64,000 bases of DNA from Candidatus Woesearchaeota archaeon (GTDB lineage: Archaea > Nanobdellota > Nanobdellia > SCGC-AAA011-G17 > JACPIM01), in contig JBDRGP010000014.1 of assembly GCA_043817645.1 (NCBI GenBank), positions 11,879 through 75,878 on the forward strand, in the 5' to 3' direction. The notes beneath the pieces are model-generated. The model did not search any database and had not been told where the DNA came from. It saw only the letters and a program-made list of their open reading frames with translations. Within the stretch, counting starts at the first letter, position 1; each line of letters begins with the position of its first letter. The position numbers and the translations under genes are program-made. This document shows positions 14,912 to 64,000 of this stretch, in pieces.

Positions 14912-15391
14912 ATGGAACTTAAAAGATACACCGTACGTTGTCCAACTGAAGGATCTCTCTTCGCAGATAATTTCACAACAGTAGAAGGAGAAAGATACAC
15001 ATGGTACCTCGCAAACAATAGAGTTGGAATAACTCCAGGTACTGGTGAAGTGATTAAAAGAAGGTTCTTCTCAAATGCTCTAGTAGAATACGAAATAGCA
15101 AAAGCAAGAGCATTCTACTTAGACTTTCTAGTAACTAAAGAAACTCTTCGAGTTAGAAAAAGCCCTCCAAACATAACAAGAGAAAAAAAACAAGCGGGTT
15201 CTCATGACCAAAATGAAGCTGCATCCAGGCTTGTTGAATTATTATCCTCTCAAGAACAAATTTTCGCATTCAGAACAAAAGCAAAACCAGAAGATCCATA
15301 CCCAAGAATCTTAACGTTCTCAACTACACCTCCAACTGAAGACCTATACCTTCAAAGACCAAATATGCCTATAACAATCTCATACCCATAA
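14912..15391 (+). CDS. Hypothetical protein
   Basis: 159-aa ORF with normal amino-acid composition and no recognised motif. 12-nt convergent overlap with the transporter gene. Confidence 0.35.
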   Translation: MELKRYTVRCPTEGSLFADNFTTVEGERYTWYLANNRVGITPGTGEVIKRRFFSNALVEYEIAKARAFYLDFLVTKETLRVRKSPPNITREKKQAGSHDQNEAASRLVELLSSQEQIFAFRTKAKPEDPYPRILTFSTTPPTEDLYLQRPNMPITISYP

Positions 15392-16720
15392 GAACCTAGC
15401 AACCAAAGCTAAAACAATCACAGAAATTATAGTTAACAAAATACCAGCCTTTAACATATCCTTAATACTAACTTTACCAGTAGCATAAGCAATCGCATTT
15501 GGAGGAGTCCCAACAGGCAATAAGAAGTCAAGAGAAACAGCAATTCCACTTAACATAGCCATATTCTTAGGAGAAAAACTCAAAATAGCAGCCAAAGACA
15601 AAATTACAGGAACTAAAATAGCAGCAGTAGCAGTATTCGAAGCCAAAGCACCTAAAGCAATAGAAAACACAATAATCCCTAAAATAACAACAAATAAAGG
15701 AAAGCCTTTTAACAAACTAGCCATTCCTCCAGCAAAAAAATCACTCAACCCAGAAGAAAACATAGCACTCCCTAAAACCAAACCACCACCAAACAAAATC
15801 AAAACCTGATAATTAATCCTATTCAAATCCCCAAGTCTCAATAATCTAATTAAAAATAAAAAAGTAGCACTCATTAAAGCTATCAAACTACTACTCAAAC
15901 CATGAAAACTAGTTGTCAACCATAACAAGATAGTAACCACAAAAACCCACATAAAGATTTTTTGTTCCTTAGTTAATTTTCTCAGCTTAGGAACCTTACT
16001 AACCTTAATATCCTCAAAGGGGAATATCTTCATCAATAACAACCAAGCAACAGGAACTAAAATAATCACTAAAGGCAAAGCAGCCTTCATCCATTCAAAA
16101 AAAGTAACATGTATATTAGAAATCTCTAACAATTTAGAAACAGTAATAGCATTGGGAGGACTTCCCAAAATAGTGCCAACACCGCCTATATTCGCACTAT
16201 AGGCAATACCTAAAACAGTAGCTTTAGTAAAATTAGTCATCTTCTTCCGAAATTTAGCAACAATACCCAAAGCAATGGGAATCATAACAACAGTAGTCGC
16301 AGTATTCGAGATCCACATAGACAAAAAAGCAGTTACAAACATCAAAGCCAGCAAAGCATACCTATCATCTTTAATCCTAAATGCAATTCTCCTAGCAATC
16401 CTTTTATCCCACCCAACATCCTGCATCGCTCTGGCAATCAAAAATCCGCCAAAAAACAAAACCAAAACAGGGTCAGCAAATTTAACAACCGCATCATTAA
16501 AACTAAAAACCTTAAACAAAACTATCAAAATAGTAGCGACTAAAGATGTTAAAAATAAAGGAATAGTCTCAGTAACCCACAATAGAGCAGCCAAAACCAA
16601 AATAGAAAATACTACTTTAGCCTCATTAGAAACTGGCAAAGGCAAAAAATATGAAAGTATGGTGATTAAAACAATTACAAGCAACTTCTTTAAATGAAAC
16701 TCTTTTTTGATAAATATCAC
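15380..16720 (-). CDS. DASS/SLC13-type anion (di/tricarboxylate or sulfate):cation symporter
   Basis: 446 aa, more than 10 TM segments, LWVTETIPLF motif near the N-terminus, internally repeated halves. Confidence 0.7.
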   Translation of the reverse strand: MIFIKKEFHLKKLLVIVLITILSYFLPLPVSNEAKVVFSILVLAALLWVTETIPLFLTSLVATILIVLFKVFSFNDAVVKFADPVLVLFFGGFLIARAMQDVGWDKRIARRIAFRIKDDRYALLALMFVTAFLSMWISNTATTVVMIPIALGIVAKFRKKMTNFTKATVLGIAYSANIGGVGTILGSPPNAITVSKLLEISNIHVTFFEWMKAALPLVIILVPVAWLLLMKIFPFEDIKVSKVPKLRKLTKEQKIFMWVFVVTILLWLTTSFHGLSSSLIALMSATFLFLIRLLRLGDLNRINYQVLILFGGGLVLGSAMFSSGLSDFFAGGMASLLKGFPLFVVILGIIVFSIALGALASNTATAAILVPVILSLAAILSFSPKNMAMLSGIAVSLDFLLPVGTPPNAIAYATGKVSIKDMLKAGILLTIISVIVLALVARFLWV

Positions 16721-41876: not shown

Positions 41877-42254
41877 TTAATAACTACTTTTCTTAAGATC
41901 CAAAGTTTTTCTTACTTTATCATAATATTTGTGATCGCCTAAGTGGAATTCTATGTAAATTGAGTTTTTAACTTTCACTAGGAGAATTCTATATTTTGTA
42001 TTGCCTAAAGTAAAGGGATAACGAAATACAAGTAGTTGATTAATAGCCCATTTTTTGTATTTCTTAGTTGAACCGACAAATATTGGCTGAATCTCTCTTT
42101 CTATAACATCAGATATCCACTTATAGATTTTTTCTTCTTGAGTGCTAGTTAGCATACCAGCAATTTGAGCGAAATTCTCTCCTAGAAATTCTATTCTATA
42201 AGCTTGAGATATTAATTTTTCAAGTTTTCTTTTAAAATAATCGGGATTAACCAT
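41877..42254 (-). CDS. Protein with a RelE/ParE-like C-terminal region
   Basis: C-terminal YRILLVKVKNSIYIEFHLGDHKYYD resembles the RelE/ParE pattern (yRi.y.v....i.i..ig.H..yY). 8-nt overlap with the upstream NTase. Confidence 0.4.
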   Translation of the reverse strand: MVNPDYFKRKLEKLISQAYRIEFLGENFAQIAGMLTSTQEEKIYKWISDVIEREIQPIFVGSTKKYKKWAINQLLVFRYPFTLGNTKYRILLVKVKNSIYIEFHLGDHKYYDKVRKTLDLKKSSY

Positions 42255-42906
42255 ACGAAATGCCCCTAGTTATTGCATGGGTCAATTTATATAAAAATCT
42301 TTGTGCCCTGTATTCAAGTAAATCTTTATAGAACCCTGCTTGAGTATAGAAAAATTTCTTTAGATATGTTTTTCTCATGTTTTTATTGATGATTTTAGGA
42401 GTCTCTTTTTTAACATACTCTAGGATTTCTAAATAATTTTTGAATTTTTCAATCTTCCTAGTAAGATGAAACGTATCTAAAATGTTGCCTGTTTTGAAAT
42501 ATTCAGTGTATAAAACCAAGAAACGAACATCCTTATGATATTTATTTTTTTGATTCAACAGAGTAGGTATTGCTTCGTTAATAACATGCCAATAATCTGA
42601 AATTGTCACTTTTAATGGTTTTTTAGGGAGAATATTTTTAGAAATGCAACTTTTTGAAATAGAATGGTAAAACAAAGAATAAAGATCGTTAAAATCTATT
42701 ATTGTGATTTTAGCCTTTTTATTATTTATAGAAATACTTCTTTTAGTTCTTGTAATTACAAAGATGTCAATGTCTTTATATTTTTCTTTGTACAAAAAAG
42801 ATCCTGTAATAAAGCAATGTTTAGCGGGTATTTGACTTAGCAAGTCCCATGCCTCTCTAAGTCTATTTTCTATAATTTCTTCGCTATGGGGATTATAAAT
42901 TATCAT
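42247..42906 (-). CDS. Nucleotidyltransferase-domain protein
   Basis: ITGSFLYKEKYKDIDIFVI motif. Confidence 0.6.
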   Translation of the reverse strand: MIIYNPHSEEIIENRLREAWDLLSQIPAKHCFITGSFLYKEKYKDIDIFVITRTKRSISINNKKAKITIIDFNDLYSLFYHSISKSCISKNILPKKPLKVTISDYWHVINEAIPTLLNQKNKYHKDVRFLVLYTEYFKTGNILDTFHLTRKIEKFKNYLEILEYVKKETPKIINKNMRKTYLKKFFYTQAGFYKDLLEYRAQRFLYKLTHAITRGISYG

Positions 42907-43993: not shown

Positions 43994-46972
43994 TCACTCT
44001 AAGGCCTTAGCAATTTTATTAGCTGCTTTTTTTATTTCCAGAAGTATAAAACCTAAATTAGCCTTGGGCTTAACTAAACAGACGAGTATAGCCTTCTTAC
44101 CCGCGGTTACAGCAACAAATCTTTTTGTCTTAGTATTAATGATTATATGATTCAACCCACCTCTCCCGAGCTTAGCCAAACTTTCCCTAGCAGAATTAAC
44201 CATCAAAGCAGATGTGGCAGAAAATTTTTCCGCCTTTTTAATCGCAGATATATTTGAAGCAATAATCAGTCCTTCTTTTGAAATAACACTCACTCCGCTT
44301 ACATCTCCAACACCAATCAAACCCTTCAACACCTTCACTAAAACAGCTTTTTTAGTTTCCTTACCCATCACCCTAAACCCATACTTCTCCAAGGCCTTCT
44401 TAGCCTCCACTTTAGAAAGCGCCTTTGTTTTCTTTTTTTGCTTCTTTATTACATAAGCTAGAAGTAACAAAAGCAAGAGCACTACAAGAGACCCCGTAGA
44501 TAAAGCCACCGGATTGGTTAATGCTTCTCCAATAGTTGACTGGTCTTCTACTCTTTCTTCAGAAGCACCTTCCTCACCCTGCTCCCCTACAGTACCATCA
44601 AGAATTCCTGTTGGAAAATCAGGAAAATTAGTAAATCTCTGAGATTCATCTACTCCTACACCCTCAGCAATTTCATCCCTTCTGGGAGATCCGCCACCAC
44701 CAGTGCCAATTCCGCCCCCTCCACCAGTACCAGTATCAGCTCTAACTACTAAATTTATATTCGGCGCATTACCATCTTCTGCACCTAAAGAAGTGCTGTA
44801 TCCAAGCACAGTAGCCTCACACACCACCTCTAATCTACCATAGTATGAGTTTATAGATGGTTGACTAAGAGTAAGAGTCAAAGTAATAGACTCATCTACA
44901 CCAACACTAAAATCATTATCAGAAAACTCTCCAAAATTAGAAATATCAAATCCAGTTATAGTCGGAATACATCCAGTGAGATCATAATTCCCAGTATTGT
45001 TCAACATCCAAGAGACTACTAGACTCTCATCATTCTCCATCTCTAAATCAACATCACAAGTACCCAATCCGCACACTATCCGAGAAATGGGAGTCAGAGC
45101 CTCAGGATTCCCACTTGGAGGATTAACCCCAATAGTTAGAGGAACTATAAAATCCGTTCCATCATTTATTCTCCGTATAGTAATATTCCCTTCATATGAA
45201 GTTTCATCCAAAACATCATCATCAATATCAATAACAACCTGATTCTTGAAAAGGTTAGATGTATTAAACACAGCATTACTAATATTCGCAGAATTATTAG
45301 TAAACGTTAATGTAAAATAAGTTTCATTTAGATCATAAGAAAAGTTAAGTTCATATATATCGCTAGACTGATGATACAAGCTCAAATTCCAAATTAGGGT
45401 CTGATTCTTAGGATCCGGTGCTACAATATACTCCGCAGGAAAAATAGAAATATCACTATACACAAAAAAGCTAACATTTCCCAGCACAGTATTAGTACCA
45501 TCTGAGACAGAATAAGAAAAATTCCAAATTCCATAATCATCTACAGTACAAGATGTAGAGTTCCATATTGAATAATCACCTACAGTGAAATTATTTCCCA
45601 ACTGGTTATCAACAACGTCCGTTCCATCCGGAGAAGTTATCGTAAAACTAACAAACTCAATAGTATCGCCCTCAGTATCTGAAACATTTACCTGAACAAA
45701 AAAACTATCTCCAAAAACAGGAGTAGCTATAGTATTATTTACAATAGTTCTATTAGACTCTATCACTGGCGGAAGGTTCGGAGAAACATCATTCACAGTA
45801 AATGTACCTGATGAGCTTGATGAACAAGCATTATCATCATCGCACACATAAGCATAGTAATCCTGTACTCCAATATCAGATGCGCTAGTTGTATAAGCGC
45901 AGCTTTCTGGATTTGAAGTTGTAAATGTTGAGGAATCACACCATGAACCGCCATCACATACTTGACCGGTTATAGCATCAGTCTTACATAGATGTACCTT
46001 AATCTTATCACCTGCATCAGCATCATCCCAGTCTACACTGAATGTAACATCCGAGCCTTCATCAACTGGGTCTGGTGAATCACTAGCAGAAGTTATTGTA
46101 GGAGCACTATTTAGGATGGTATAAGATATAGTAACATTATATAGCTCCGGCGAAAAAGAAATATCACTAGTCTCAAATTCCACCCTATATTGAAAGAACT
46201 GATTATCTATCTCAGATAAAGTAACTAATGTTGAATTTATATAGGGCCCATTCCAAGATTCCCCAACACAATCAGAGTCATCACATGAATGAGTATAAAC
46301 AGAAATATTTGTTAACGAAGCAAGCATAGCCAAGATACCATATTGGTTATCAGTATTCTCATCAGAATAAGCATCATTAATCAAAGTCCAGGTGGCACCG
46401 GAATCTGTGGATTTGTAAATTCTTTTATTTTTTACAGTAGCATAAAGATTATTATCCGAATCAGTTGTAATACCCCTTGGATCCTCTGGAAAAGCAGTAT
46501 CATTGAGCAAAGTCCAAATAGCACCAGAATCTGTGGATTTGTAAACTGCCCGATCACCTTGCCGTGTTATAATAAACAAACCATCGGAGTTAGAGGTTAT
46601 ACCTCCTATATCATCGCCATCAAATCTAAATACACCATTAATCTCTATCCAAGTTACTCCTAAATCAGAAGATCTCCATAAATCTCTATGATTGTCCGCA
46701 GCAAATAAATATTCAGTGTCATAATTGATTTCATACCAACCAAGATTGTCCCACTGAGCTACTGAACCGGCATCAAAGACCTTACTAGTATAATTTCCAG
46801 AATCAAACCCCTCAGAAAGATTTAGCTGTATAAAATTAGCGGTTGTATTATAAAAAGTTTGGTAATATGTGCCCTCATCAAAATCTGATGGGGAATCATC
46901 TACAAAAGAATCAGCAAGTATGAATAAGCTAAACAACAAGATCCCAACAACTAAAGGATAGTATCTCCTCAT
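43994..46972 (-). CDS. 992-aa surface receptor: signal peptide, BNR/Asp-box repeats, Ig-like domains, Gly-rich stalk, one TM helix, cytoplasmic Roadblock/LC7 domain
   Basis: SSDLGVTW, STDSGAIW and STDSGATW Asp-boxes. Many N-x-S/T sequons. GTGGGGGIGTGGGGS linker. TM LVVLLLLLLLAYVI. The C-terminal 120 aa is a close paralog of the 47773..48144 protein. Confidence 0.75.
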   Translation of the reverse strand: MRRYYPLVVGILLFSLFILADSFVDDSPSDFDEGTYYQTFYNTTANFIQLNLSEGFDSGNYTSKVFDAGSVAQWDNLGWYEINYDTEYLFAADNHRDLWRSSDLGVTWIEINGVFRFDGDDIGGITSNSDGLFIITRQGDRAVYKSTDSGAIWTLLNDTAFPEDPRGITTDSDNNLYATVKNKRIYKSTDSGATWTLINDAYSDENTDNQYGILAMLASLTNISVYTHSCDDSDCVGESWNGPYINSTLVTLSEIDNQFFQYRVEFETSDISFSPELYNVTISYTILNSAPTITSASDSPDPVDEGSDVTFSVDWDDADAGDKIKVHLCKTDAITGQVCDGGSWCDSSTFTTSNPESCAYTTSASDIGVQDYYAYVCDDDNACSSSSSGTFTVNDVSPNLPPVIESNRTIVNNTIATPVFGDSFFVQVNVSDTEGDTIEFVSFTITSPDGTDVVDNQLGNNFTVGDYSIWNSTSCTVDDYGIWNFSYSVSDGTNTVLGNVSFFVYSDISIFPAEYIVAPDPKNQTLIWNLSLYHQSSDIYELNFSYDLNETYFTLTFTNNSANISNAVFNTSNLFKNQVVIDIDDDVLDETSYEGNITIRRINDGTDFIVPLTIGVNPPSGNPEALTPISRIVCGLGTCDVDLEMENDESLVVSWMLNNTGNYDLTGCIPTITGFDISNFGEFSDNDFSVGVDESITLTLTLSQPSINSYYGRLEVVCEATVLGYSTSLGAEDGNAPNINLVVRADTGTGGGGGIGTGGGGSPRRDEIAEGVGVDESQRFTNFPDFPTGILDGTVGEQGEEGASEERVEDQSTIGEALTNPVALSTGSLVVLLLLLLLAYVIKKQKKKTKALSKVEAKKALEKYGFRVMGKETKKAVLVKVLKGLIGVGDVSGVSVISKEGLIIASNISAIKKAEKFSATSALMVNSARESLAKLGRGGLNHIIINTKTKRFVAVTAGKKAILVCLVKPKANLGFILLEIKKAANKIAKALE
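43997..44359 (-). other. Cytoplasmic Roadblock/LC7 (MglB-like) domain of the 992-aa receptor
   Basis: GVSVISKEGLIIASN....AGKKAILVCLVKPKANLGFILLEI, compared with GSSIVSRDGLLIASD....AGKTAILVCLIKPKANLGLILLSI in the standalone protein. Confidence 0.7.
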
Positions 46973-47109
46973 TTTTTCCTCTCCTCATTTAGTAGGTTTT
47001 TCATAAACAACTCAATCTTCTTAGAGAGCATAATAGCGTTATCTCTACAAAATTTCTGAAACTCATCATAGACCTTGGAGTCTACGCTCAACGTCACCTT
47101 CTTTTGCAT
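46969..47109 (-). CDS. 46-aa ribbon-helix-helix (CopG/Arc-like) protein (not in the ORF track)
   Basis: Own translation: MQKKVTLSVDSKVYDEFQKFCRDNAIMLSKKIELFMKNLLNEERKK. Its TGA overlaps the receptor ATG (ATGA). Confidence 0.6.
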   Translation of the reverse strand: MQKKVTLSVDSKVYDEFQKFCRDNAIMLSKKIELFMKNLLNEERKK

Positions 47110-47130
47110 TAAAAATAATAAACCCATCCG

Positions 47131-47144
47131 TATATATAAATCTT
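47131..47144 (-). promoter_or_regulatory. Internal TATA-like promoter upstream of the RHH-receptor pair
   Basis: Minus strand reads AAGATTTATATATA, about 22-35 nt upstream of the ATG at 47109, in the only sizeable gap (73 nt) of the cluster. Confidence 0.4.
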
Positions 47145-47182
47145 ATGACTCCCTCAGAAATCTATAGACGTACATAGAAATA

Positions 47183-47776
47183 TCAAATTTTAACCTTAAC
47201 TTTCCGTCCGTCTACCTCAACAACACCATCCATCAGGTGTTCCATACTAGCTACCACCTTCTCATCATGCATGCCTTTCTCTATAATAAAAACTATAGAA
47301 CCATCCACATTCTTTGTTCTCGCAGTTATAATCTGAACAAATCTCCCCACAGCTTCGGGTGTAGAATACATAAGTAATGTAGAAAGACTCTGAAAAAAAA
47401 CATATTGTTTTTTATTTTTTTTATAAAAATAATTCTCTAACTCCGCCAAAGCAACAGAGATCTCATTTAAAGCCAAAGGACCAGGAACTCTTTTAATAAC
47501 AGCAGTATCGGAGACAGTATTCTGAGTTTGTGCACTATAACAATCAATAAATTTCAAATTGCCTTCCTTTTCATATTTCTCAGGAAGTATTTTATTTTTT
47601 TGCAAAGAAGATTCAACATCCTTAGGAAAATGATCTGTAGTTATAAACAAAACTGTTTTTTTATTATTCAAAGCTTTTGAAACAATCTCATAAAATATCT
47701 TATCCTTCTGAGATAATGGCGGTCCAATTACTAAAATCGCCGATCGTTCTGGTATTTTTGAAAAATAATCGATCAT
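47183..47776 (-). CDS. KaiC/RecA-like domain protein with a degenerate P-loop
   Basis: SAILVIGPPLSQKDKIFYEIV replaces GxxGxGK(S/T). VFFQSLSTLL is Walker-B-like without Asp. KaiC-like length and topology. Confidence 0.5.
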   Translation of the reverse strand: MIDYFSKIPERSAILVIGPPLSQKDKIFYEIVSKALNNKKTVLFITTDHFPKDVESSLQKNKILPEKYEKEGNLKFIDCYSAQTQNTVSDTAVIKRVPGPLALNEISVALAELENYFYKKNKKQYVFFQSLSTLLMYSTPEAVGRFVQIITARTKNVDGSIVFIIEKGMHDEKVVASMEHLMDGVVEVDGRKVKVKI

Positions 47777-48144
47777 CTTAATATTCTTGCTATTTTTTTA
47801 CTTTGAGTATTAATACTCAGTAATATTAAACCCAAATTAGCCTTAGGTTTTATTAAACAAACCAAAATCGCTGTTTTCCCTGCACCTGTAGCAATAATAC
47901 TTCCCATCTTTGAATTCACTATTATCTGATCCGGATTTCCTTTTTTTAATTCAGCAACTGCTGTTTCAGCAGCTCCAGTCATAGCTGCGGACATTGCTGC
48001 AAAAGTCTTTGTATCAACATCAGCTAAAAGATCAGACGCAATAAGTAAGCCATCCCTAGAAACTATAGAAGAACCCTCTACACCACCAACCTTTATTAAA
48101 TCCTTCAAAATTTCCATCATTTTTTCATTCTTCGTTTTTTTCAT
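47773..48144 (-). CDS. Roadblock/LC7 (MglB-like) protein
   Basis: 123 aa. VEGSSIVSRDGLLIASDL...AILVCLIKPKANLG pattern. Confidence 0.75.
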   Translation of the reverse strand: MKKTKNEKMMEILKDLIKVGGVEGSSIVSRDGLLIASDLLADVDTKTFAAMSAAMTGAAETAVAELKKGNPDQIIVNSKMGSIIATGAGKTAILVCLIKPKANLGLILLSINTQSKKIARILR

Positions 48145-48154
48145 CTTTTACACC

Positions 48155-48526
48155 TCATTTAATAAATGGAATTATATGGCCCCCAGCCCTATTCATGTGA
48201 AACAAAACCATGCCAAGATTAGCTTTTAATTTTAACAAGCAAACCAAAACAGCTCTCTTCCCAACATTACTTACTATAATTTCTCCTTTTGTGGAATTCA
48301 AAATCACCTGTAATGGATCTCCCATCTTCAACTCAGACATAACTATCCCTCTAGATTTAGCAATTTCTGCACCCATAGCCGCCAATACCCCGGAATCAGT
48401 ATTGGCCCTCAAATCAGATGCAATAAGTAGTCCATCTTTAGAAATCACCGCACATCCCTCTATATCGTCCACTTTTTGACGTAAATTTTTAATTATATCC
48501 AAAATATGGGATTTATCTGTTTTCAT
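48155..48526 (-). CDS. Roadblock/LC7 (MglB-like) protein
   Basis: 123 aa. IEGCAVISKDGLLIASDL...AVLVCLLKLKANLG. Confidence 0.75.
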   Translation of the reverse strand: MKTDKSHILDIIKNLRQKVDDIEGCAVISKDGLLIASDLRANTDSGVLAAMGAEIAKSRGIVMSELKMGDPLQVILNSTKGEIIVSNVGKRAVLVCLLKLKANLGMVLFHMNRAGGHIIPFIK

Positions 48527-49662
48527 TGTCTCTCAACCTCTCTAAATAAAACCTCAAGAGCTTTCTCCACCCCTTTTTTCTTTATTGCTACGCAAGGTAC
48601 AATAAGCTCGCTTGAAATAGACAGTTTCTTTCTAATTTGATTTAGAGATAAGGCTCCCTTAAGATCCCTTTTGTTTGCAATTATAACATGCGGTACATGG
48701 CTTAACCTACATTTCATGATCATTTCCCCCGCCCTCGCAAATGTCTCAGGTCTTGTTGAATCTACAACCAAAAACAATCCAATAGCCCTATGCCCAAGAT
48801 TTTTCAATAAAGGATCAAATCGTGCCTGTCCTGGTGTCCCAAATACATCCGCAGCATACCTTTTATAATTTACATGCCCATAATCTAAGGCCACAGTAGT
48901 TCCTAACCTGTCTACAGATGTCGCTCTTGTCGATATTGCATGTGTGAATGTTGATTTACCTGAATTATACGGACCAGTAACCAAAATCTTTGGAATATAC
49001 TCTTTTACTCCGCCAGGATTAATTATGTCAAACAAAACATCTTGCTTCTTCAGTTTTTTAATCCATCCTGCTTTTGAAACTCTAAAATAACTTCTTAATA
49101 TCACATTTTTCTCAATAGTCTCTAAATCAATAACGCAATCAAAAAAAGACCTCATATCAGCCATCATTTTTTTCTGATAAGACCACTCTGTTAATAAACC
49201 TACAACTGTAAGCTTCTTACAGGCACTTAACAATTCCTTAAGAAAAGAAACAGTTTTTTTATTCGCACCATATACATCCAAAAAAGAAGAAACAGAATCT
49301 ATAACCAAAACCGTTCCGGGTCTTAATCTCTTCACAGAATCCAACAAACTTTTTTGGACCTTAGACTGATCTGCTTTTTTTACAATCCCATCATATAAAT
49401 CTACAATCTTAAATTTACCATTTTTCTCAAATTTCGTAATATCCCAGTCATATTCCTTAAACAATTTTTTTATTAAAACAGATTTTTTATTATTCACAAC
49501 ATAAACTATCTTATCATTTTTTCGCAGTCTATTATAAATTAAATTATACAAAAATTGAAGACTCTTAACACCCGGAGTAGATACTATTAAAGTTGAAGAA
49601 CCAGTTCTAAGCCCCCCATTCAATAACTCATCTAATTTCGGAATTTCTGTCTTCAATATCAA
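48523..49662 (-). CDS. Fusion of an inactivated KaiC/RecA-like domain and a COG2229/MglA-like small GTPase
   Basis: The N-terminal half has the KaiC-like GLDELLNGGL.. entry but STPGVKS in place of the P-loop. The C-terminal half has G1 GPYNSGKS, G3 VFGTPGQARF and G4 NKRD. Confidence 0.7.
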   Translation of the reverse strand: MILKTEIPKLDELLNGGLRTGSSTLIVSTPGVKSLQFLYNLIYNRLRKNDKIVYVVNNKKSVLIKKLFKEYDWDITKFEKNGKFKIVDLYDGIVKKADQSKVQKSLLDSVKRLRPGTVLVIDSVSSFLDVYGANKKTVSFLKELLSACKKLTVVGLLTEWSYQKKMMADMRSFFDCVIDLETIEKNVILRSYFRVSKAGWIKKLKKQDVLFDIINPGGVKEYIPKILVTGPYNSGKSTFTHAISTRATSVDRLGTTVALDYGHVNYKRYAADVFGTPGQARFDPLLKNLGHRAIGLFLVVDSTRPETFARAGEMIMKCRLSHVPHVIIANKRDLKGALSLNQIRKKLSISSELIVPCVAIKKKGVEKALEVLFREVERQ

Positions 49663-49673
49663 AGGAGCACCTC

Positions 49674-50399
49674 CTAGAGATTGGCAAACAAGGTTTCCTT
49701 AGGATACACAACTATGCCTTTGTTAGTTATGTTAAACAATCTAATATTTTTATCGTGATCAGAACCCCTCATTTTCCTAACTACAATTCCCGGAACAAAC
49801 CTCTCTCCCTGTCTTAAGTGATATAACGCAATCACTCCATCAACAATAAACTCCTCAATACCATACCTAGACAAGTCAAATGTTCCCTCTTTAGTCTCTG
49901 ATATTAACAAAGAAGTACAGCCTAATTCAGACAAAGAGCTGGATAACCTTGCAAACGCTTTCCTTCGCTCCCCACTAGTTTTAGCAAGCAATCCAAACAA
50001 ACTAACAGAATCTACAACAACTCTCTTAATTTTATTTTCCCTCACGAGTTCCTTTATTTCCTCTATAACATGATCGGTTTCAGCTCCAACTTTCTTCATA
50101 AAACTATCAAGAGTCCCCAAACCTCCACCAACAAGAACAAATTTCTTAGTTTTCTCAAGTTTTTTTAGATCAAAACCAAAAGAATACATATTTTCCATCA
50201 AACTATTTTTTCCTTCCTCAAAACTAACATACAACCCAGGCTCCTTAAAGTCCTTAATGCCATTATGAATAAACTGCATACCAAGTACAGACTTGCCGGA
50301 TCCACAAGGTCCGGACAAAAGAACAGTTCTCCCTTCAATAATTCCCCCTCTCAACAACTGGTCCAATCCTTTAATTCCGGTCCTCACCCTCTTTTTCAT
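49674..50399 (-). CDS. Single-domain KaiC-like (RecA-superfamily) ATPase, apparently active
   Basis: GIKGLDQLLRGGI, Walker A SGPCGSGKS, SFEE, Walker B VVVDSV. Confidence 0.75.
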   Translation of the reverse strand: MKKRVRTGIKGLDQLLRGGIIEGRTVLLSGPCGSGKSVLGMQFIHNGIKDFKEPGLYVSFEEGKNSLMENMYSFGFDLKKLEKTKKFVLVGGGLGTLDSFMKKVGAETDHVIEEIKELVRENKIKRVVVDSVSLFGLLAKTSGERRKAFARLSSSLSELGCTSLLISETKEGTFDLSRYGIEEFIVDGVIALYHLRQGERFVPGIVVRKMRGSDHDKNIRLFNITNKGIVVYPKETLFANL

Positions 50400-50401
50400 C
50401 T

Positions 50402-50977
50402 TTATTTTAACACGTATTTCCTCTTTTTAAATTTTCTTGGTATGTAAAACAAGAATAACCCTGTAACAAATCCTGAAAAATGAAATAAAGTCTGTGGTAA
50501 ATCAGAATAACTTCCAGAGCCAGTAAATAACGTAAGCAAATATTTAAGAAACACAGAGGCTCCTAATAGGGGAATTAAATAGACCTTAGGAACAAAATTC
50601 GACCCTTTAATAGACAAAACGCCCAAAACACCATATATCCCCAAGGAAGCACCAGCGATAACTAATAAAGGAAACATAAACGCATCTGCGAGTGCAATCA
50701 CAAAGCTAACAGCTATAAAAAAAACAACAAAGCTCCTTCCAGCCAATCCAAATTCATAAGCTAAAAAACTCACCAAAGCAATCGCTACTATATTCTCAAT
50801 TAAATGCAAAGTGGTTATATGAACAAATGAAAACGTTATCAACCTCCAAAATTCCCCAGATAAAAACGTTTTTCCAGAAAAAGAAAATATCTCCAAGGCA
50901 CCCGGTATCAGGAAAAAAATAAACAAACTAACAAGAACTATTCCAAAAGAGATAAGAAAAACAGATTTTATTCTCAT
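50402..50977 (-). CDS. Rhomboid-family intramembrane serine protease
   Basis: WRLITFSFVHITTLHLIEN, GASLGIYGVLG (catalytic Ser), FHFSGFVTG (catalytic His). 6 TM segments. Confidence 0.8.
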   Translation of the reverse strand: MRIKSVFLISFGIVLVSLFIFFLIPGALEIFSFSGKTFLSGEFWRLITFSFVHITTLHLIENIVAIALVSFLAYEFGLAGRSFVVFFIAVSFVIALADAFMFPLLVIAGASLGIYGVLGVLSIKGSNFVPKVYLIPLLGASVFLKYLLTLFTGSGSYSDLPQTLFHFSGFVTGLFLFYIPRKFKKRKYVLK

Positions 50978-51120
50978 CTTTCTCCAAGGTACTTTTGAAC
51001 TTCCTCGTTTCTCAAGGTATGCTTTCTTAGTTTTTTCTTAACCTTCTTTGTGTAGGCTATAAGAAAAGCAACTACAGCAACAGTACCAGCAGTAGCCTCA
51101 AGTGCAATTATTTTTTCCAT
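50974..51120 (-). CDS. 48-aa single-TM protein
   Basis: MEKIIALEATAGTVAVVAFLIAYTKKVKKK.., start preceded by AGAGGA. ATGA overlap with the rhomboid gene. Confidence 0.4.
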   Translation of the reverse strand: MEKIIALEATAGTVAVVAFLIAYTKKVKKKLRKHTLRNEEVQKYLGER

Positions 51121-51368
51121 TTTTTCCTCTTTAAATGAACAAACACAAACAAAACCAACAGAATACCAACCACTCCCCACTCTACAGCCAAAGGCGTCAC
51201 ATCTTGATCTCGCGCTAAAGAGCCAGAAATGGCCATTGGTTGGATAATATAAATAAATAAAATAAATATAAGTGCCGCATAAATTAAAGTAGAAAACATC
51301 ATCTTATTAACATTTCCAGATCCATATCCCGGAATTTTCTTAATTAATTTTCTTATGTTTTTTGCCAT
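51108..51368 (-). CDS. 86-aa two-TM membrane protein
   Basis: Two hydrophobic helices flanked by basic residues. Overlaps the upstream gene by 16 nt. Confidence 0.4.
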   Translation of the reverse strand: MAKNIRKLIKKIPGYGSGNVNKMMFSTLIYAALIFILFIYIIQPMAISGSLARDQDVTPLAVEWGVVGILLVLFVFVHLKRKKWKK

Positions 51369-51901
51369 TTTCTCTTAAAAATAACTAAAAGGATAATAAT
51401 CAAAATAACAGGTAATATAACACCCACGCCCAAGGGGATCGCCTCTTCACCCTCAGCCAACTTCTCAGTTAATTCTATATCCATCTTAGTCAACGACTCC
51501 CTATCACCCTTAGTCAAAATCACAGGAATCCGAATGGTATCATCCCCATAATAATTTACTTTTTCAGGAAGTTTCTCATATAGCATATTGATCGTCAAAT
51601 ATCCCTTAAGTTCCTTTCCGGGATTTATAACATCCAATTTTAAAACAAGAGGTTCTTTCTCACTAACTCTCAAATCACTTATAGGCTCAAATTTCAGATA
51701 GTCCTTAATATTTAAAGACCGCTCAACCGAAATCAAAATAGGCTCTGTATCTGTCTCGAACGTAATCACTCCTTTCTTGCTACCCTTGCCATCAAAACTA
51801 AATACTAGCTCGTCCTCACTCAAAATGCTCCTAACTCCAGCTACAAACCCAGCTAAAAGAATCAATATAATCACAAAGTAAAACAACCTTAAATTACCCA
51901 T
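51353..51901 (-). CDS. Bitopic surface protein (signal/anchor, beta-rich ectodomain, C-terminal TM)
   Basis: N-terminal FYFVIILILLAGFVAG, C-terminal GVGVILPVILIIILLVIFKRK. Confidence 0.45.
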   Translation of the reverse strand: MGNLRLFYFVIILILLAGFVAGVRSILSEDELVFSFDGKGSKKGVITFETDTEPILISVERSLNIKDYLKFEPISDLRVSEKEPLVLKLDVINPGKELKGYLTINMLYEKLPEKVNYYGDDTIRIPVILTKGDRESLTKMDIELTEKLAEGEEAIPLGVGVILPVILIIILLVIFKRKWQKT

Positions 51902-51927: not shown

Positions 51928-51937
51928 ATTTATAAAG
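51928..51937 (-). promoter_or_regulatory. TATA box heading the 51901..47183 operon
   Basis: Minus strand reads aaCTTTATAAATtc, about 27-36 nt upstream of the ATG at 51901. Confidence 0.4.
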
Positions 51938-60446: not shown

Positions 60447-63400
60447 TTAAGAGCATGAAGGGTTTAAAACACCATAAATCCTATAAGCAAAATCTGTTGG
60501 AGTTTCTGATTCCATCACTTCCTCAACAAAAGTCCATTCAGGATATCCAAAAAATCCACTTTGAGTAACACCTTGAGTTTGACCTTGTATCTCTCCGTTG
60601 CCAGTGGTTGCTGCATGGTTTCTTCCGCGATAATTTCCTACAAGACGGACTCCGAAATAATAATGTCCGGGCTCTAAAGTTATATCTGGAACAGAAAGAG
60701 TACCTTCATATGTTTCCATATCAAAATCAGTGCCTATTATTTCTGCTGTATAGTCAACATCTAAAAACTCAACGATAGTATTAAAATTGCTATCTAAAAT
60801 AACCACCTCAGCTGTATTATATTCCACATCTTGATGGGGTTGTCTCATACCAATCCATTTTATTTTTTGAACATCAACACATTCATCAAAAACAGCATCA
60901 TCAGCTGTCCATGACCAGGTAACAAAAGTCCGGCGTTCTGAACTTAGCATGCTTTCATGATCATATCCTTCTTCTCCTTGGTAGTTGTCCCATAATAACT
61001 GCGCTTTGAAACAATCATAGCAGCCTGTGTGTCGTTCTGTGTTTCTCAACATTGGCCACTCCAAGCTTTCATTACTAACTGCTCCGTTGGTTTTCCAAAC
61101 AAATACATCACCTAGTTCGTTAACAGCGACAATTTCTAGCACCCCATCTCCATCAACATCACCAACAGAAGCTCCTGATTGAGAAATGCAATACATTTGT
61201 TTTGGTTCAAATAATTGATTTCCATTAAAATCAAATGCAAATAATTTTCCTCCATATGTTGTGGTTATGATATCTGAATTGTCATCATTGTTAAGATCTG
61301 CTAAAACCGGTTGAACCCACACAGAAGATCCAACCTCCTGCGGCCAACCAGGCAAAACCTCTCCATATCTATCTAAAACATATATATCTCCACCGAAGAA
61401 ACCTCTAATATTGCCAAAGACTATTTCATTACTTCCATCATTATTTAAATCACCAGTAGCCAAAGAAAGAGGAGTTAACTGATAACCACCACCATTCCAA
61501 TCCCACTCCCGAATGCCTGTATGATGATAACAAGCCTCCCCCTGACCCCTACTAAAGCAAATCTCAAGATCAAAATCGCCGTCCATATCCAACATGACTG
61601 GATCACCGTAAGGAAAAAGAGGAACATCAAAATCAATTTCAAGATTACCAATGCTATCAAAGATTGCAACATGTGATTCTATGGTATACCAGTCATCAAG
61701 CCCATTTGGGAAATAATAATAAATTAATATTACTTCTTTTTCCCCGTCAGCATCAACATCTCCGACTGTAGGGGAGTAGAATAAACGGTAGAGGGGGTCG
61801 TTTCTCGCTGGTAATGGCCAGTTTCCAAAATTATTTCCTTGATAATCAAAAATATATGTTAAGGCACTTTCATCATAACCAGAAGCTATAATCTCTAAAT
61901 ATCCGTCATTATTTAAATCAACAAGCGACATTGAAGAGAAAAATAATCCCCAGAGGCTTGCATTTAGGGGAAGATCACATTGAATGGGCCATCCTTGTAC
62001 AGGAGTTCCATCAGATTCCCATGCATAAGCACATCGATCCATTGGATTTCCTTCTTGATCTGTTGTGTTCTCAGGCCACTGAGTCCAGCCTGCAACTATT
62101 TCCATATCCCCATCATTATCAATATCACCTACTGAGACTGAATGATATGCCCCATTACCCATTATCCCACCTCCAAGAGTTTGGGGCCAGCCGGGAAGTG
62201 GAGTTCCATCAGAAAAATATGCAAAAACCTCATGGGATCCTCTAATAAAAATTTCATCAGAGCCATCATTATTTATATCAGCTAAGGTCGGGGTGAACCC
62301 TGCCCATAACTCCCACTCCTGTCCAAGATTAATTGGCCATCCATCCATCAAGTCGTGATCAACATTTAGGTATCCGTAATCTTTAAAAATTCTTCCTTGG
62401 GTATCGAAAACTTTCAATCTAATTAAATACTCTCCCCCACTAATCTCTGTCAAATCTAAATTATCATACACCACATCATCTGAAGGAACTTCATAAGAAA
62501 CAGTTATCAAACTCCAGTCGGCTTCGTCTAATTCAACTAATGGAACATTAGAAGCATAAGCCAACTCATAATATTCAAAATTGTTTCCAGTTATCTCTCC
62601 AGTTATATCAATTATTAACTGGTTTTGCTCAATGGGATCTAAATTTATAATCATCGGATTCTCGAAAAATACAGATTCTAATGCATTCACCAAACCAAAA
62701 CCTTGTGTAGTTACTTTCTCGGGATTCGGCAATAGCGCTGCAGTATTCTTTATTAATGTCTTAATTTCTTCCGCATTATACCTGGGATTTCTTTGTTTTA
62801 TCAAAGCAGCTAATCCAGCAACATGTGGTGTTGCCATACTTGTTCCAGAGATAGAGGTATGTTCATCATCCAAGCATTCCCTATCACTCCATGCATCTTC
62901 CCACTGCGCAGCACATATGTTAACACCGGGAGCAACAATGTCTGGTTTAATTAAAGAAACTTTGTTCCCCAAAGCATCTTCCCAAATAACTGGCCCTTTT
63001 GAACTAAAATCAGCCATATTCAATTCTTTATCAACTGCACCAACAGTAATTGCTTTTCTTGCTGTTCCTGGTGAGCCAATAGTTCCTTCCCCATAATCGT
63101 TTCCTGCAGCAACAACGGCAACGACCCCTAAATCAACAGCATTATCAATAGCTAATGACATATCATCATCAGGATTCCCCCCACCACCCAAGCTTAAACT
63201 TATAACATCTAAATGATCTGAAAAATCTCCATCTTGATTAGGATCAACGCTTCTATCAATTGCTGCAATAATATCATTAAACCAACCACCGCCATACTCA
63301 TCTAATACTTTATAAGCAACAATATCTGCGTCAGGAGCAACGCCTTTCAAGACCCCATCACCAGCAGCTGTTGCTGCAACATGGGTTCCATGCCCCATAT

Positions 63401-64000
63401 CATCCATCGGATCATTATCTCCATTTACAAAATCCCATCCATCAATTACTTTGCATTCAGGACCAAAGCAACCTCCCAGATCAACATGAGTATAATCAAC
63501 TCCAGTATCAATAATACCAATAGTAACTCCTTTTCCTGTCAAGCATTCTCTCGGAGTTGCTTCAGGCGAGGGTTCAGGAGAGATTTCACTTATAGGATTG
63601 CCCGTTATATGAGAGGATCCTGTTGGCTCACAAGGTCTTCCATTTCTATCAAGTTCCCAAACATCATCAGCACCAATCAAAGGGACAGAATCCATCAATG
63701 TTGCATAAACTCTGTAGTTCGGGGTAACGGTGTATCCTTCGGCCCTTAATGTGCTAATCTCATTTGATGTTAAATCGTCTACAACAATAGCATTCAAAAC
63801 TTTGGTAACTTCTCCCCTAATATTAATATCTGGTCTTAGCTCGTTTAATCTTGTTTTCAAATTATTATGCTCTGATTCTATTTTAGCTCTTTGACTAGTT
63901 AATTTCTGTTGTAAATCTGAATTTAGTTTATTTTTACTGTAAGTAACTGCTAAAGGTTCTTCCTTTAATCTAACAATATAACCATTAAATTGCTGTTCTT
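60447..64000 (-). CDS. Giant secreted subtilisin-like (S8) protease with an I9 propeptide, FG-GAP repeat propeller and C-terminal beta domain. The 5-prime end lies outside the window.
   Basis: IIDTGVDYTH (Asp), HGTHVAATAAG (His), SGTSMATPHVAG (Ser). At least 8 D.(N/D).DG...E(I/V) FG-GAP units. The frame stays open from 63861 to 64000 (..GYIVRLKEEPLAV..). Confidence 0.85.
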   Translation of the reverse strand, partial: EQQFNGYIVRLKEEPLAVTYSKNKLNSDLQQKLTSQRAKIESEHNNLKTRLNELRPDINIRGEVTKVLNAIVVDDLTSNEISTLRAEGYTVTPNYRVYATLMDSVPLIGADDVWELDRNGRPCEPTGSSHITGNPISEISPEPSPEATPRECLTGKGVTIGIIDTGVDYTHVDLGGCFGPECKVIDGWDFVNGDNDPMDDMGHGTHVAATAAGDGVLKGVAPDADIVAYKVLDEYGGGWFNDIIAAIDRSVDPNQDGDFSDHLDVISLSLGGGGNPDDDMSLAIDNAVDLGVVAVVAAGNDYGEGTIGSPGTARKAITVGAVDKELNMADFSSKGPVIWEDALGNKVSLIKPDIVAPGVNICAAQWEDAWSDRECLDDEHTSISGTSMATPHVAGLAALIKQRNPRYNAEEIKTLIKNTAALLPNPEKVTTQGFGLVNALESVFFENPMIINLDPIEQNQLIIDITGEITGNNFEYYELAYASNVPLVELDEADWSLITVSYEVPSDDVVYDNLDLTEISGGEYLIRLKVFDTQGRIFKDYGYLNVDHDLMDGWPINLGQEWELWAGFTPTLADINNDGSDEIFIRGSHEVFAYFSDGTPLPGWPQTLGGGIMGNGAYHSVSVGDIDNDGDMEIVAGWTQWPENTTDQEGNPMDRCAYAWESDGTPVQGWPIQCDLPLNASLWGLFFSSMSLVDLNNDGYLEIIASGYDESALTYIFDYQGNNFGNWPLPARNDPLYRLFYSPTVGDVDADGEKEVILIYYYFPNGLDDWYTIESHVAIFDSIGNLEIDFDVPLFPYGDPVMLDMDGDFDLEICFSRGQGEACYHHTGIREWDWNGGGYQLTPLSLATGDLNNDGSNEIVFGNIRGFFGGDIYVLDRYGEVLPGWPQEVGSSVWVQPVLADLNNDDNSDIITTTYGGKLFAFDFNGNQLFEPKQMYCISQSGASVGDVDGDGVLEIVAVNELGDVFVWKTNGAVSNESLEWPMLRNTERHTGCYDCFKAQLLWDNYQGEEGYDHESMLSSERRTFVTWSWTADDAVFDECVDVQKIKWIGMRQPHQDVEYNTAEVVILDSNFNTIVEFLDVDYTAEIIGTDFDMETYEGTLSVPDITLEPGHYYFGVRLVGNYRGRNHAATTGNGEIQGQTQGVTQSGFFGYPEWTFVEEVMESETPTDFAYRIYGVLNPSCS

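Follow-up and report, generated by a model that had tools for sequence, protein, structure and literature searches.

A stretch of 64,000 nucleotides (nt) from Candidatus Woesearchaeota archaeon (assembly GCA_043817645.1, contig JBDRGP010000014.1, positions 11,879 to 75,878 of the forward strand), hereafter the window, was analysed for a cluster of eleven minus-strand genes at 43994-51901. The cluster encodes surface and membrane proteins, a rhomboid protease, KaiC-like proteins, a small GTPase and three Roadblock/LC7 domains, one of which forms the cytoplasmic tail of a receptor of 992 amino acids (aa). The original prediction, made from the letters of the sequence, had listed these genes and had read them as a single unit linking the receptor, through Roadblock pairing, to the GTPase and the KaiC ATPase. 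The eleven open reading frames (ORFs) and all of the claimed lengths were reproduced in the ORF listing of the window; overall, the observation was confirmed and the interpretation was supported in part. The genes, numbered along the minus strand from the first, at 51353-51901, to the eleventh, the receptor, at 43994-46972, are the following:

51353-51901, minus strand: 182-aa bitopic surface protein with an N-terminal signal or transmembrane (TM) helix and a C-terminal TM anchor
51108-51368, minus strand: 86-aa protein with two TM helices, ending in TPLAVEWGVVG, a TM helix and KRKKWKK
50974-51123, minus strand: 49-aa single-TM protein with a basic helix (VKKKLRKHTLRNEEV), its start moved to an internal ATG
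50402-50977, minus strand: rhomboid intramembrane serine protease (Pfam PF01694, 9.6e-9, 36 bits against a cut-off of 22.6)
49674-50399, minus strand: single-domain KaiC-like ATPase, 241 aa (Pfam KaiC, PF06745, 7.9e-66, 222 bits)
48523-49662, minus strand: fusion of a pseudo-KaiC (KaiC domain, aa 1-222) to a small GTPase (aa 223-379)
48155-48526, minus strand: Roadblock/LC7 protein A, the most divergent of the three paralogues (Pfam Robl_LC7, 2.3e-12)
47773-48144, minus strand: Roadblock/LC7 protein B, the most conserved paralogue (Pfam Robl_LC7, 5.4e-18)
47183-47776, minus strand: DUF7504-type pseudo-KaiC, 197 aa (Pfam DUF7504, 9e-18; KaiC, 1.2e-9, 38 bits)
46969-47109, minus strand: putative ribbon-helix-helix (RHH)-like protein, 46 aa, in a variable slot before the receptor gene
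43994-46972, minus strand: 992-aa type I membrane protein, the receptor (Robl_LC7, 3.5e-9, at aa 881-966)

The profile searches for the Roadblock, GTPase, KaiC and rhomboid domains, all of which had been named beforehand, gave significant matches throughout. In the fusion, Pfam KaiC was matched at aa 4-220 (4.9e-26, 92 bits) and the Arf/Ras/MMR_HSR1 families at aa 225-377 (Arf, 7e-13). The N-terminal domain carries STPGVKSL instead of a P-loop and NNKK instead of the FEE motif, and its P-loop was found to be degenerate (no GK[ST]) in 16 of 16 aligned homologues. The GTPase domain presents the motifs G1 GPYNSGKST, G2 Thr-Thr, G3 GTPGQ and G4 NKRD; within its G3 stretch (FGTPGQARF) the residues G-T-P-G-Q are invariant or nearly so in 16 fusion proteins, and T255 and T256 of the G2 stretch (LGTTVALD) are invariant in the same alignment. 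Similarly, the 197-aa protein has GPPLSQKDK at the P-loop, has lost the Glu pair (TTD) and has Gln in place of the Walker B Asp (QS). The fusion N-domain and the 197-aa protein are members of the KaiC profile that lack both the P-loop Lys-Ser/Thr and the Glu pair of active members, and profiles and motif readings agree on the earlier calls of a pseudo-KaiC::GTPase fusion and a P-loop-degenerate KaiC. No solved relative of the DUF7504 protein was obtained in a search of the PDB. The AlphaFold2 (AF2) model of the fusion, with a predicted local distance difference test (pLDDT) score of 86.6 and a predicted template modelling (pTM) score of 0.83, consisted of one compact two-lobed body, for which a fold search returned two-domain KaiC proteins as the best structural matches, a result that does not resolve the GTPase subfamily. 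In such a body, the GTPase could take the place of a second KaiC lobe.

The bit scores against Robl_LC7 (PF03259, cut-off 23) were 46.9 and 65.0 for the standalone Roadblock proteins A and B, respectively, and 36.7 for aa 881-966 of the receptor. The nearest PDB matches of the Roadblock proteins were archaeal Roadblock entries (9jue and 7f8m, with E-values of 1.7e-17 and 4e-15, respectively), followed by CvnB5 (3leq, 1.2e-6) and MglB (6e-3); no paper on entry 9JUE turned up in literature searching. In a tree, A, B and the receptor tail fell into three clean orthologous groups, with A represented across four genomes, and the identity between genomes was 77-80% for B and 40-48% for A. The separation of the three groups suggests that each paralogue has been kept for a role of its own. 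An ancestral Roadblock gene is triplicated in this lineage into A, B and the receptor tail, and B, which retains the Asp-Gly pair (SRDGL), is the ancestral paralogue.

The core of the cluster extends far beyond this lineage. Homologues of the fusion, searched at a threshold of E ≤ 1e-5, numbered 693, and the KaiC+GTPase architecture was identical in all of the 120 that were listed. Their hosts include Nanoarchaeota, Woesearchaeota, Methanothermobacter, Methanoperedens, Methanocellales, Altiarchaeota, Bathyarchaeota, Parvarchaeota (ARMAN-4) and Hadarchaeota. Twenty archaeal fusion loci were annotated with the window proteins as phmmer queries and with a Roadblock hidden Markov model (HMM). A Roadblock gene was present within 6 kb of the fusion in 18 of the 20 loci and a DUF7504-type KaiC-like gene within the same distance in 17, and the trio was adjacent in about 17. 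The order was Roadblock, fusion, KaiC-like, KaiC-like and TPR in Methanothermobacter, and DUF7504, fusion and Roadblock in Methanoperedens, Methanosarcinales and ARMAN. The unit conserved from methanogens to DPANN archaea is the pseudo-KaiC::GTPase fusion together with a Roadblock protein and a second KaiC-like protein. When the KaiC-like partners of four loci (L001:9177-10573, L008:11170-11856, L011:11172-12693 and L015:1324-2019) were compared with window 47183-47776, the Walker A motif (GPPKxGKS) was found to be kept in methanogens and Hadarchaeota and lost in DPANN, Methanoperedens and ARMAN, so that this second slot seems to stand at differing stages of inactivation across archaea. A scan with the GTPase motifs also retrieved loci that contain the GTPase only, in Chloroflexi and in Actinobacteria including Streptomyces and Nocardia. 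A Roadblock gene lay within 3 kb in 38 of the 69 GTPase-only loci retrieved, and the Streptomyces and Nocardia loci showed 29-31% identity to the GTPase by tblastn.

The receptor consists of a signal peptide, three BNR/Asp-box repeats, Cys-rich and immunoglobulin (Ig)-like modules, a Gly-rich linker, a TM helix at aa 824-842 and a Roadblock domain at aa 871-992. Its ectodomain of about 800 aa contains 23 N-glycosylation sequons, and a stop-transfer sequence (KKQKKK) follows the TM helix and precedes the cytoplasmic Roadblock domain. The profile match, together with the single-pass topology, bore out the claim of a receptor with a C-terminal cytoplasmic Roadblock domain. The co-localisation that had been asked of related genomes was also found: besides the adjacency of fusion, Roadblock and pseudo-KaiC genes across distant archaea, a Roadblock-tailed receptor gene directly followed DUF7504 in six of six related loci, which come from different samples (the window, L003, L086, L090, L093, which is partial, and L094). 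The identity of the tail between orthologues was 54-58%. The ectodomain changes much faster: against the L086 receptor only aa 402-992 could be aligned (46%), the N-terminal 400 aa being replaced, and against the L003 receptor only the cytoplasmic 148 aa (54%). A tail that is conserved beneath a head that changes fast is the pattern expected when a receptor or an adhesin reports to a cytoplasmic partner that stays the same. A search with the tail alone in a word-indexed protein collection gave nothing at E ≤ 1e-5, and an exhaustive search of representatives did give relatives. The full-length receptor retrieved only BNR/Sortilin-like and other ectodomain modules in unrelated surface proteins, with no further Roadblock-tailed match.

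A short motif, LEK[AYDE]GF[KSR]V(K)KSTK, was noted between the TM helix and the Roadblock domain (aa 858-872 of the window receptor, nt about 44357-44401). The juxtamembrane pattern LEKxGFxV is present in five of the six receptors (window, L003, L090, L093 and L094) and absent from that of L086, and may serve for docking or as a site of modification. The slot that precedes the receptor varies among these loci, with a winged helix-turn-helix (wHTH) gene in L086 and L094 and nothing in L003 and L090. In the window, the ORF of the RHH-like protein is present as predicted, and the call itself gained only a sub-threshold match to DUF6364 (22 bits against a cut-off of 27.3), with no relative in the PDB. 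A 146-aa protein in L094 (1252-1692), likewise encoded in this slot, carries the RHH-like module of the window at its C-terminus; the N-terminal part of this protein, about 95 aa, shows a DF...ELE.K pattern that recalls PD-(D/E)xK nuclease-like folds and had no Pfam match.

A Roadblock domain at the C-terminus of a membrane protein was also found in a second family of unrelated architecture (650-1760 aa), comprising P0250, P0263, P0274, P0279, P0293, P0294, P0296, P0302, P0314 and P0364, with loci L089, L091 and L092. These proteins begin with a signal peptide and an ectodomain of about 350 aa; several TM helices come next, then very long coiled coils that bear CPxC...CxxC Zn-ribbons, a conserved IPxEWRxW segment and, last, the Roadblock domain. 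No GTPase or KaiC neighbour was found in the three short contigs (4.5-10 kb). In L092, a standalone Roadblock gene lies about 750 nt upstream of the second-family gene. The wiring of KaiC, GTPase and Roadblock proteins to a receptor with a Roadblock domain of its own had been put forward as not known from a described system; C-terminal-Roadblock membrane proteins exist in at least one other, unrelated architecture, and the original reading has to be corrected on that point.

In sister lineages, the cassette was found with sensor genes of other kinds. The order in L087 is TrmB, fusion, Roadblock, FIST, HAMP sensor and DUF7504, and that in L006 is TrmB, fusion, 3-TM protein, Roadblock, solute-binding protein, 4HB/HAMP sensor and DUF7504. 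The longest arrangement, in L088, runs from a type IV pilus-like locus through the fusion, a 3-TM protein, Roadblock, a metallo-beta-lactamase and HAMP to a degenerate Roadblock, a solute-binding protein, a second HAMP, Roadblock, PAS, FIST and DUF7504. The HAMP sensors (L087:13167-14057; L088:12911-13816 and 15123-16097; L006:13219-14454) have a conserved C-terminal tail besides two TM helices and an outside loop, and no kinase domain. Their C-tail, strongly conserved over about 60 aa with the consensus DRNDLLxSLLKTFKGKFGNLATILVRKNVQELVxKNPRIxxILPKS, was observed in genes that have a Roadblock gene near or next to them. These tails were considered as Roadblock-like and rejected, the Roadblock HMM having matched the first helix only, at insignificant E-values (0.5-1.4). 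HAMP, FIST, PAS and solute-binding sensors are absent from the cassette in the window's own lineage. DNA-binding neighbours recur as well, namely RHH-like proteins in the window and L094, wHTH proteins in L086 and L094, and TrmB in L006 and L087. In the Woesearchaeota-type loci L005 (1-7897) and L088 (1-9867), the cassette is immediately downstream of a type IV pilus-like cluster composed of a KaiC-like ATPase, a large secreted protein, four small pilin-like proteins, T2SSE and T2SSF. The candidates for an output are the small DNA-binding proteins encoded within or close to the operon and the type IV pilus loci beside the cassette in relatives; for the window itself, a pilus output was not supported, the 64 kb containing no T2SSE or T2SSF homologue.

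Upstream of the fusion lie the genes of the surface and membrane proteins, the rhomboid and the single-domain KaiC. The C-terminus of the 182-aa protein is conserved (GEExxPLGVG, TM helix, FKRKWxKT) in its orthologues at L003:2024-2560 (52% identity) and L086:7986-8540 (48%), and no Pfam or NCBIfam family was matched by this protein. The C-terminus of the 86-aa protein repeats the same motif. The 86-aa gene was seen in the window only, with no counterpart in the orthologous loci L003 and L086, and overlaps each of its neighbours by 16 nt, like the overlap of the 182-aa and 49-aa genes in L003; it probably arose recently by partial tandem duplication of the 182-aa gene at its 3' end. The 49-aa gene is kept beside the rhomboid gene, with orthologues in L003, in L086, where the annotation pipeline had left it uncalled, and in L006. 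The call of a rhomboid protease was upheld by the profile match and the Ser-His dyad motifs: WR/HxxxxHxxxN (VHITTLHLIEN), GASLGIYG with the catalytic Ser and FHFSG with the catalytic His are intact, and WR/HxxxxHxxxN, GASxGIYG and FHFSG are kept in four orthologues. The 241-aa KaiC-like ATPase, 69% identical to its L003 and L086 orthologues, carries the Walker A motif GPCGSGKS, the catalytic Glu pair (FEE) and the Walker B motif VVVDS, and is apparently active as judged from these motifs.

L003 and L086 both conserve the 182-aa protein, the 49-aa protein, the rhomboid and the active KaiC, and rhomboid and active KaiC genes lie within 8 kb of the cassette in the window, L003, L086 and L006. In L006, the rhomboid, 49-aa and KaiC genes make up an operon of their own, which is encoded on the other strand some 4 kb away from the fusion and has a PAS-HTH regulator beside it. 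In L090, a different surface protein precedes the fusion, and none of the rhomboid, 49-aa and active KaiC genes was found upstream of it in the roughly 1 kb available to the contig end. Because of these two arrangements, the upstream genes were treated as an accessory module, often but not always attached, and the notion of the eleven genes as one obligatory unit had to be given up. Together with the 49-aa protein and the surface proteins anchored at their C-termini, the rhomboid would make up an accessory membrane module in which it may process those anchors, and the PLGVG/TM/KRKW tails with the rhomboid may be a candidate archaeal C-terminal sorting signal with its processing enzyme. The arrangement recalls rhombosortase and GlyGly-CTERM, in that a rhomboid-family protease adjoins proteins whose C-terminus combines a short motif with a TM helix and a cluster of basic residues (PLGVG, TM helix, KRKW). 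It differs from that system in its archaeal host, in a motif that is not Gly-Gly and in the rhomboid itself, whose best NCBIfam match was rhombosortase (TIGR03902) at 43.2 bits, below the cut-off of 84.

The junctions between the eleven genes, in gene order, are -16, -73, -4, +2, +11, -4, +10, -4, +55 and -4 nt. When the 1-TM gene is started at the internal ATG at 51123 (49 aa), as in its L003, L086 and L006 orthologues, the -73 junction becomes -16. For the RHH-like gene, the second ATG at 47109 is the most likely start, with which the gap of +55 is 73 nt; the 73-nt gap with a TATA box that had been described is reproduced with this start. Two promoter elements were recognised:

47131-47140, minus strand: TTTATATATA box, putative internal promoter of the RHH-like gene and the receptor, from reading the sequence
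51929-51936, minus strand: TTTATAAA, TATA-like, putative promoter of genes 1-9, on the basis of archaeal promoter geometry

The first box lies 4 nt from the first ATG of the RHH-like gene, and its centre is about 26 nt upstream of the second, a spacing that fits an archaeal leaderless transcript. The second is about 31 nt upstream of the ATG of the first gene, in a 136-nt divergent intergenic region common to the cluster and a Na+/H+ exchanger gene. A co-directional run of eleven genes is unusual locally, since the strand changes every 1-4 genes around the cluster, and the cluster is flanked by archaeal housekeeping genes (tRNA-splicing endonuclease, S17e and Alba). Two overlapping minus-strand ORFs without a Pfam match (219 aa and 125 aa, 8-nt overlap) were seen at 41877-42906, with the S17e gene on one side and the tRNA endonuclease region on the other; in L003 and L086 this place is taken by a KaiC pair and DUF7504-like genes. 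Farther away, at 60447-63860, the window encodes a large surface or secreted protein of 1137 aa with a subtilase domain (Peptidase_S8, 4e-62) and FG-GAP repeats.

Pairs of small GTPases and Roadblock proteins are known in bacteria (MglA/MglB and the conservon) and in eukaryotes (Ragulator-Rag). The closest described system is the actinobacterial conservon (CvnA, CvnB, CvnC with DUF742, and CvnD), and the cassette is conservon-like, not a member. Both encode, side by side, a membrane sensor, a Roadblock protein and an MglA-family GTPase of the GTPGQ type, and in both the GTPase is presumed to be the output switch. In the window the Roadblock genes directly follow the GTPase gene, and sister DPANN loci carry HAMP membrane sensors, as CvnA does. 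The conservon's other parts were not found among the eleven products, in which Pfam detected neither a kinase/HATPase domain, as in CvnA, nor a DUF742 match, as in CvnC. The cassette further differs in that its GTPase is fused to a dead KaiC, in the presence of a second pseudo-KaiC and an active KaiC and in the sensor of the window, which itself bears a Roadblock domain, whereas that of the conservon is a separate kinase-like protein.

The likeness to the conservon and to MglA/MglB, as originally predicted, was borne out by the GTPGQ motif of MglA groups 2-5 and by the matches of the Roadblock proteins to the CvnB5 and MglB structures. Groups 2-5 have GTPGQ instead of DxxGQ at G3 and a Thr, not an Arg finger, beside the G2 Thr, and group 2 corresponds to CvnD; in the same survey of single-domain GTPases, the archaeal MglA group 4 was without conserved neighbours (Wuichet & Sogaard-Andersen 2014). 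The GTPase of the window agrees with groups 2-5 in its GTPGQ and G2 Thr-Thr and departs from their single-domain form through the fused 222-aa KaiC-like domain. The TVPGQ and the intrinsic Arg finger in G2 that characterise group 1 were not found in it. With MglA/MglB of Myxococcus and Thermus the cassette shares a Ras-like GTPase with a dimeric Roadblock-fold regulator, and the link of that system to type IV pili is echoed by the pilus loci of L005 and L088. It differs in the same motifs (TVPGQ and Arg finger there, GTPGQ and Thr-Thr here) and in the weak match to MglB (6e-3); RomR/RomX and Frz components were not seen here, and MglA/MglB has no membrane-anchored Roadblock. As in Ragulator-Rag, several Roadblock paralogues occur together, one of them membrane-attached, in association with a small GTPase. 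Here, however, the tether is the TM helix of a surface protein, compared with the lipidated LAMTOR1 in Ragulator, whose LAMTOR Roadblock heterodimers scaffold the Rag GTPases at the lysosomal membrane, and the GTPase is without a C-terminal Roadblock of its own. This resemblance is an analogy, with no evidence of common descent of the assemblies.

Regarding the KaiC proteins, archaeal KaiC-like ATPases have been proposed as signal transduction hubs (Makarova, Galperin & Koonin 2017, mBio, as described in papers that cite it), and the cassette would conform to that proposal, as far as the citing papers convey it, in combining active and inactivated KaiC domains with signalling domains in archaeal operons. 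It is unlike the KaiABC clock, since all KaiC-like domains here are single and no product matched KaiB or KaiA in Pfam or NCBIfam. No paper joining KaiC, Roadblock and GTPase in one system was found in the literature searched, the text of the 2017 KaiC-hub survey lying outside this comparison. The original reading was also corrected on what sets the window apart, which is not the link of KaiC, GTPase and Roadblock as such, a pan-archaeal cassette, but the Roadblock-tailed receptor that replaces the HAMP, FIST and solute-binding sensors.

Roadblock domains act as dimers that dock small GTPases (MglB, CvnB and LAMTOR), and the receptor tail would accordingly be expected to pair with one soluble Roadblock protein at the membrane. 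By analogy with those systems, the partner could be Roadblock A or B, and the GTPase domain would dock on the platform formed by the pair, its GTP hydrolysis or nucleotide exchange being altered depending on what the ectodomain contacts. Through the dead KaiC domains, acting as adaptors, the GTPase would be connected to the active KaiC ATPase encoded upstream. The cluster is probably a lineage-specific version of the pan-archaeal cassette, a conservon-like membrane-to-GTPase switch in which we infer Roadblock pairing to be the coupling step. That signals would run from outside to inside is likewise inferred.

Several observations weigh against this view of a conservon-like switch. The AF2 model of the tail (aa 843-992, built from a 3-sequence alignment) had a mean pLDDT of 44 and is unreliable, although the order of its secondary-structure elements is compatible with a Roadblock alpha-beta-alpha sandwich. 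The six receptor loci have a common downstream synteny (Alba, S17e) and hence sample one lineage, in which conservation is partly simple inheritance. The second family, found without GTPase or KaiC neighbours in three short contigs, indicates that a Roadblock tail alone does not imply this wiring. Among the solved structures in the PDB, Arl/Arf proteins were closest to the GTPase domain and MglA was not among the best 60 matches listed, so that the domain is nearer in sequence to Arf/Arl than to MglA. The internal TTTATATATA box suggests that separate transcription of the receptor is possible, tight gene spacing is weak evidence of one pathway in genomes as compact as those of DPANN archaea, and no pilus genes are present in the window.

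The explanation that competes best with the conservon-like switch reverses the direction of control. The 992-aa protein would be an adhesin or structural surface protein, and the GTPase, Roadblock and KaiC proteins would set its clustering or exposure through the tail, which would resemble the positioning of motility and adhesion machinery by MglA/MglB. The BNR/Sortilin-like and Ig-like modules of the ectodomain are common to many surface proteins and are rapidly replaced, as in adhesins. The adjacency of the cassette to type IV pilus-like loci in L005 and L088 points in the same direction, as do the frequent occurrence of Roadblock genes in archaeal type IV pilus loci (PMC4858521) and the role of MglA-family GTPases as polarity and localisation switches (PMC4316618). 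Nevertheless, the same operon position holds HAMP, FIST, PAS and solute-binding sensors in sister lineages, which argues for input rather than output, and the window lacks pilus genes. Control from the inside out was considered somewhat unlikely.

It was also considered whether the cluster comprises three unrelated operons packed together by genome compaction, namely a unit for surface-protein processing (the proteins with C-terminal anchors, the 49-aa protein and the rhomboid, possibly with the KaiC), the GTPase/Roadblock/pseudo-KaiC cassette, and a regulator with a surface adhesin. Co-direction and short gaps would then reflect the gene density of DPANN genomes and not one pathway. The opposite-strand rhomboid operon of L006, the different surface protein before the fusion in L090 and the TATA box before the RHH-like and receptor genes agree with such a division, and distant archaea carry the cassette without a rhomboid and without an active KaiC. 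The second and third units are nonetheless tied to each other by the receptor tail, which is paralogous to the Roadblock proteins of the cassette and follows DUF7504 in all six loci, and the first is held near them by the rhomboid and active KaiC genes, at most 8 kb from the cassette in the four loci named above. Packing of three independent operons was regarded as unlikely.

Regulated intramembrane proteolysis was rated as quite improbable. The rhomboid would cut the TM helix of the receptor and free the Roadblock tail to engage the GTPase in the cytoplasm. The intact catalytic motifs of the protease and the co-location of rhomboid and receptor genes in three loci are consistent with this route, and the receptor is of type I, like typical rhomboid substrates, its TM helix having small, helix-destabilising residues (ALSTGS) at the outer end. 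The TM sequence, however, is not conserved among orthologues, and better candidate substrates stand beside the protease gene, namely the 182-aa and 86-aa proteins with their common C-terminal motif and the 49-aa neighbour. In addition, L090 has the receptor and the cassette with no adjoining rhomboid in the approximately 1 kb between the fusion and the contig end. Finally, an anti-virus defence island built on P-loop NTPases was effectively refuted, the PADLOC models having given only marginal P-loop matches to the candidate model mad8 (1e-4 to 1e-5) and no real family match, with housekeeping genes on the flanks (tRNA endonuclease, S17e and Alba) and the cassette kept at the same position with the same flanking genes in related genomes.

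A bolder form of the conservon-like switch may be advanced tentatively, and with more doubt than confidence. According to this proposal, the cluster would represent an undescribed archaeal transmembrane pathway in which contact of the hypervariable receptor with a ligand or a host cell leads to an exchange of Roadblock partners (the tail with A or B), which would in turn fix the nucleotide state of a GTPase of the MglA type carried by a KaiC-family scaffold. The core without the receptor would be a pan-archaeal switch ranking with the two-component systems, and the membrane-tethered Roadblock platform would be a prokaryotic counterpart of Ragulator-Rag.

How signals enter prokaryotic GTPase/Roadblock modules is a poorly understood question, and it is the one addressed by this locus. 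What is noteworthy is a pan-archaeal, seemingly uncharacterised pseudo-KaiC::GTPase core and, within it, a lineage whose membrane sensor carries a Roadblock domain. The KaiC-fused archaeal GTPase has near-constant partners, a Roadblock protein and a second KaiC-like protein, combined with interchangeable sensor modules. A sensor fused directly to a Roadblock domain offers a concrete hypothesis, hetero-pairing of Roadblock domains at the membrane, that is testable in vitro with four small soluble proteins, and since the core is present in cultivable methanogens such as Methanothermobacter, genetics is conceivable. DPANN cells are mostly attached to hosts, and a surface protein that evolves fast and is connected to a cytoplasmic switch is, for such cells, a candidate sensor of host contact.

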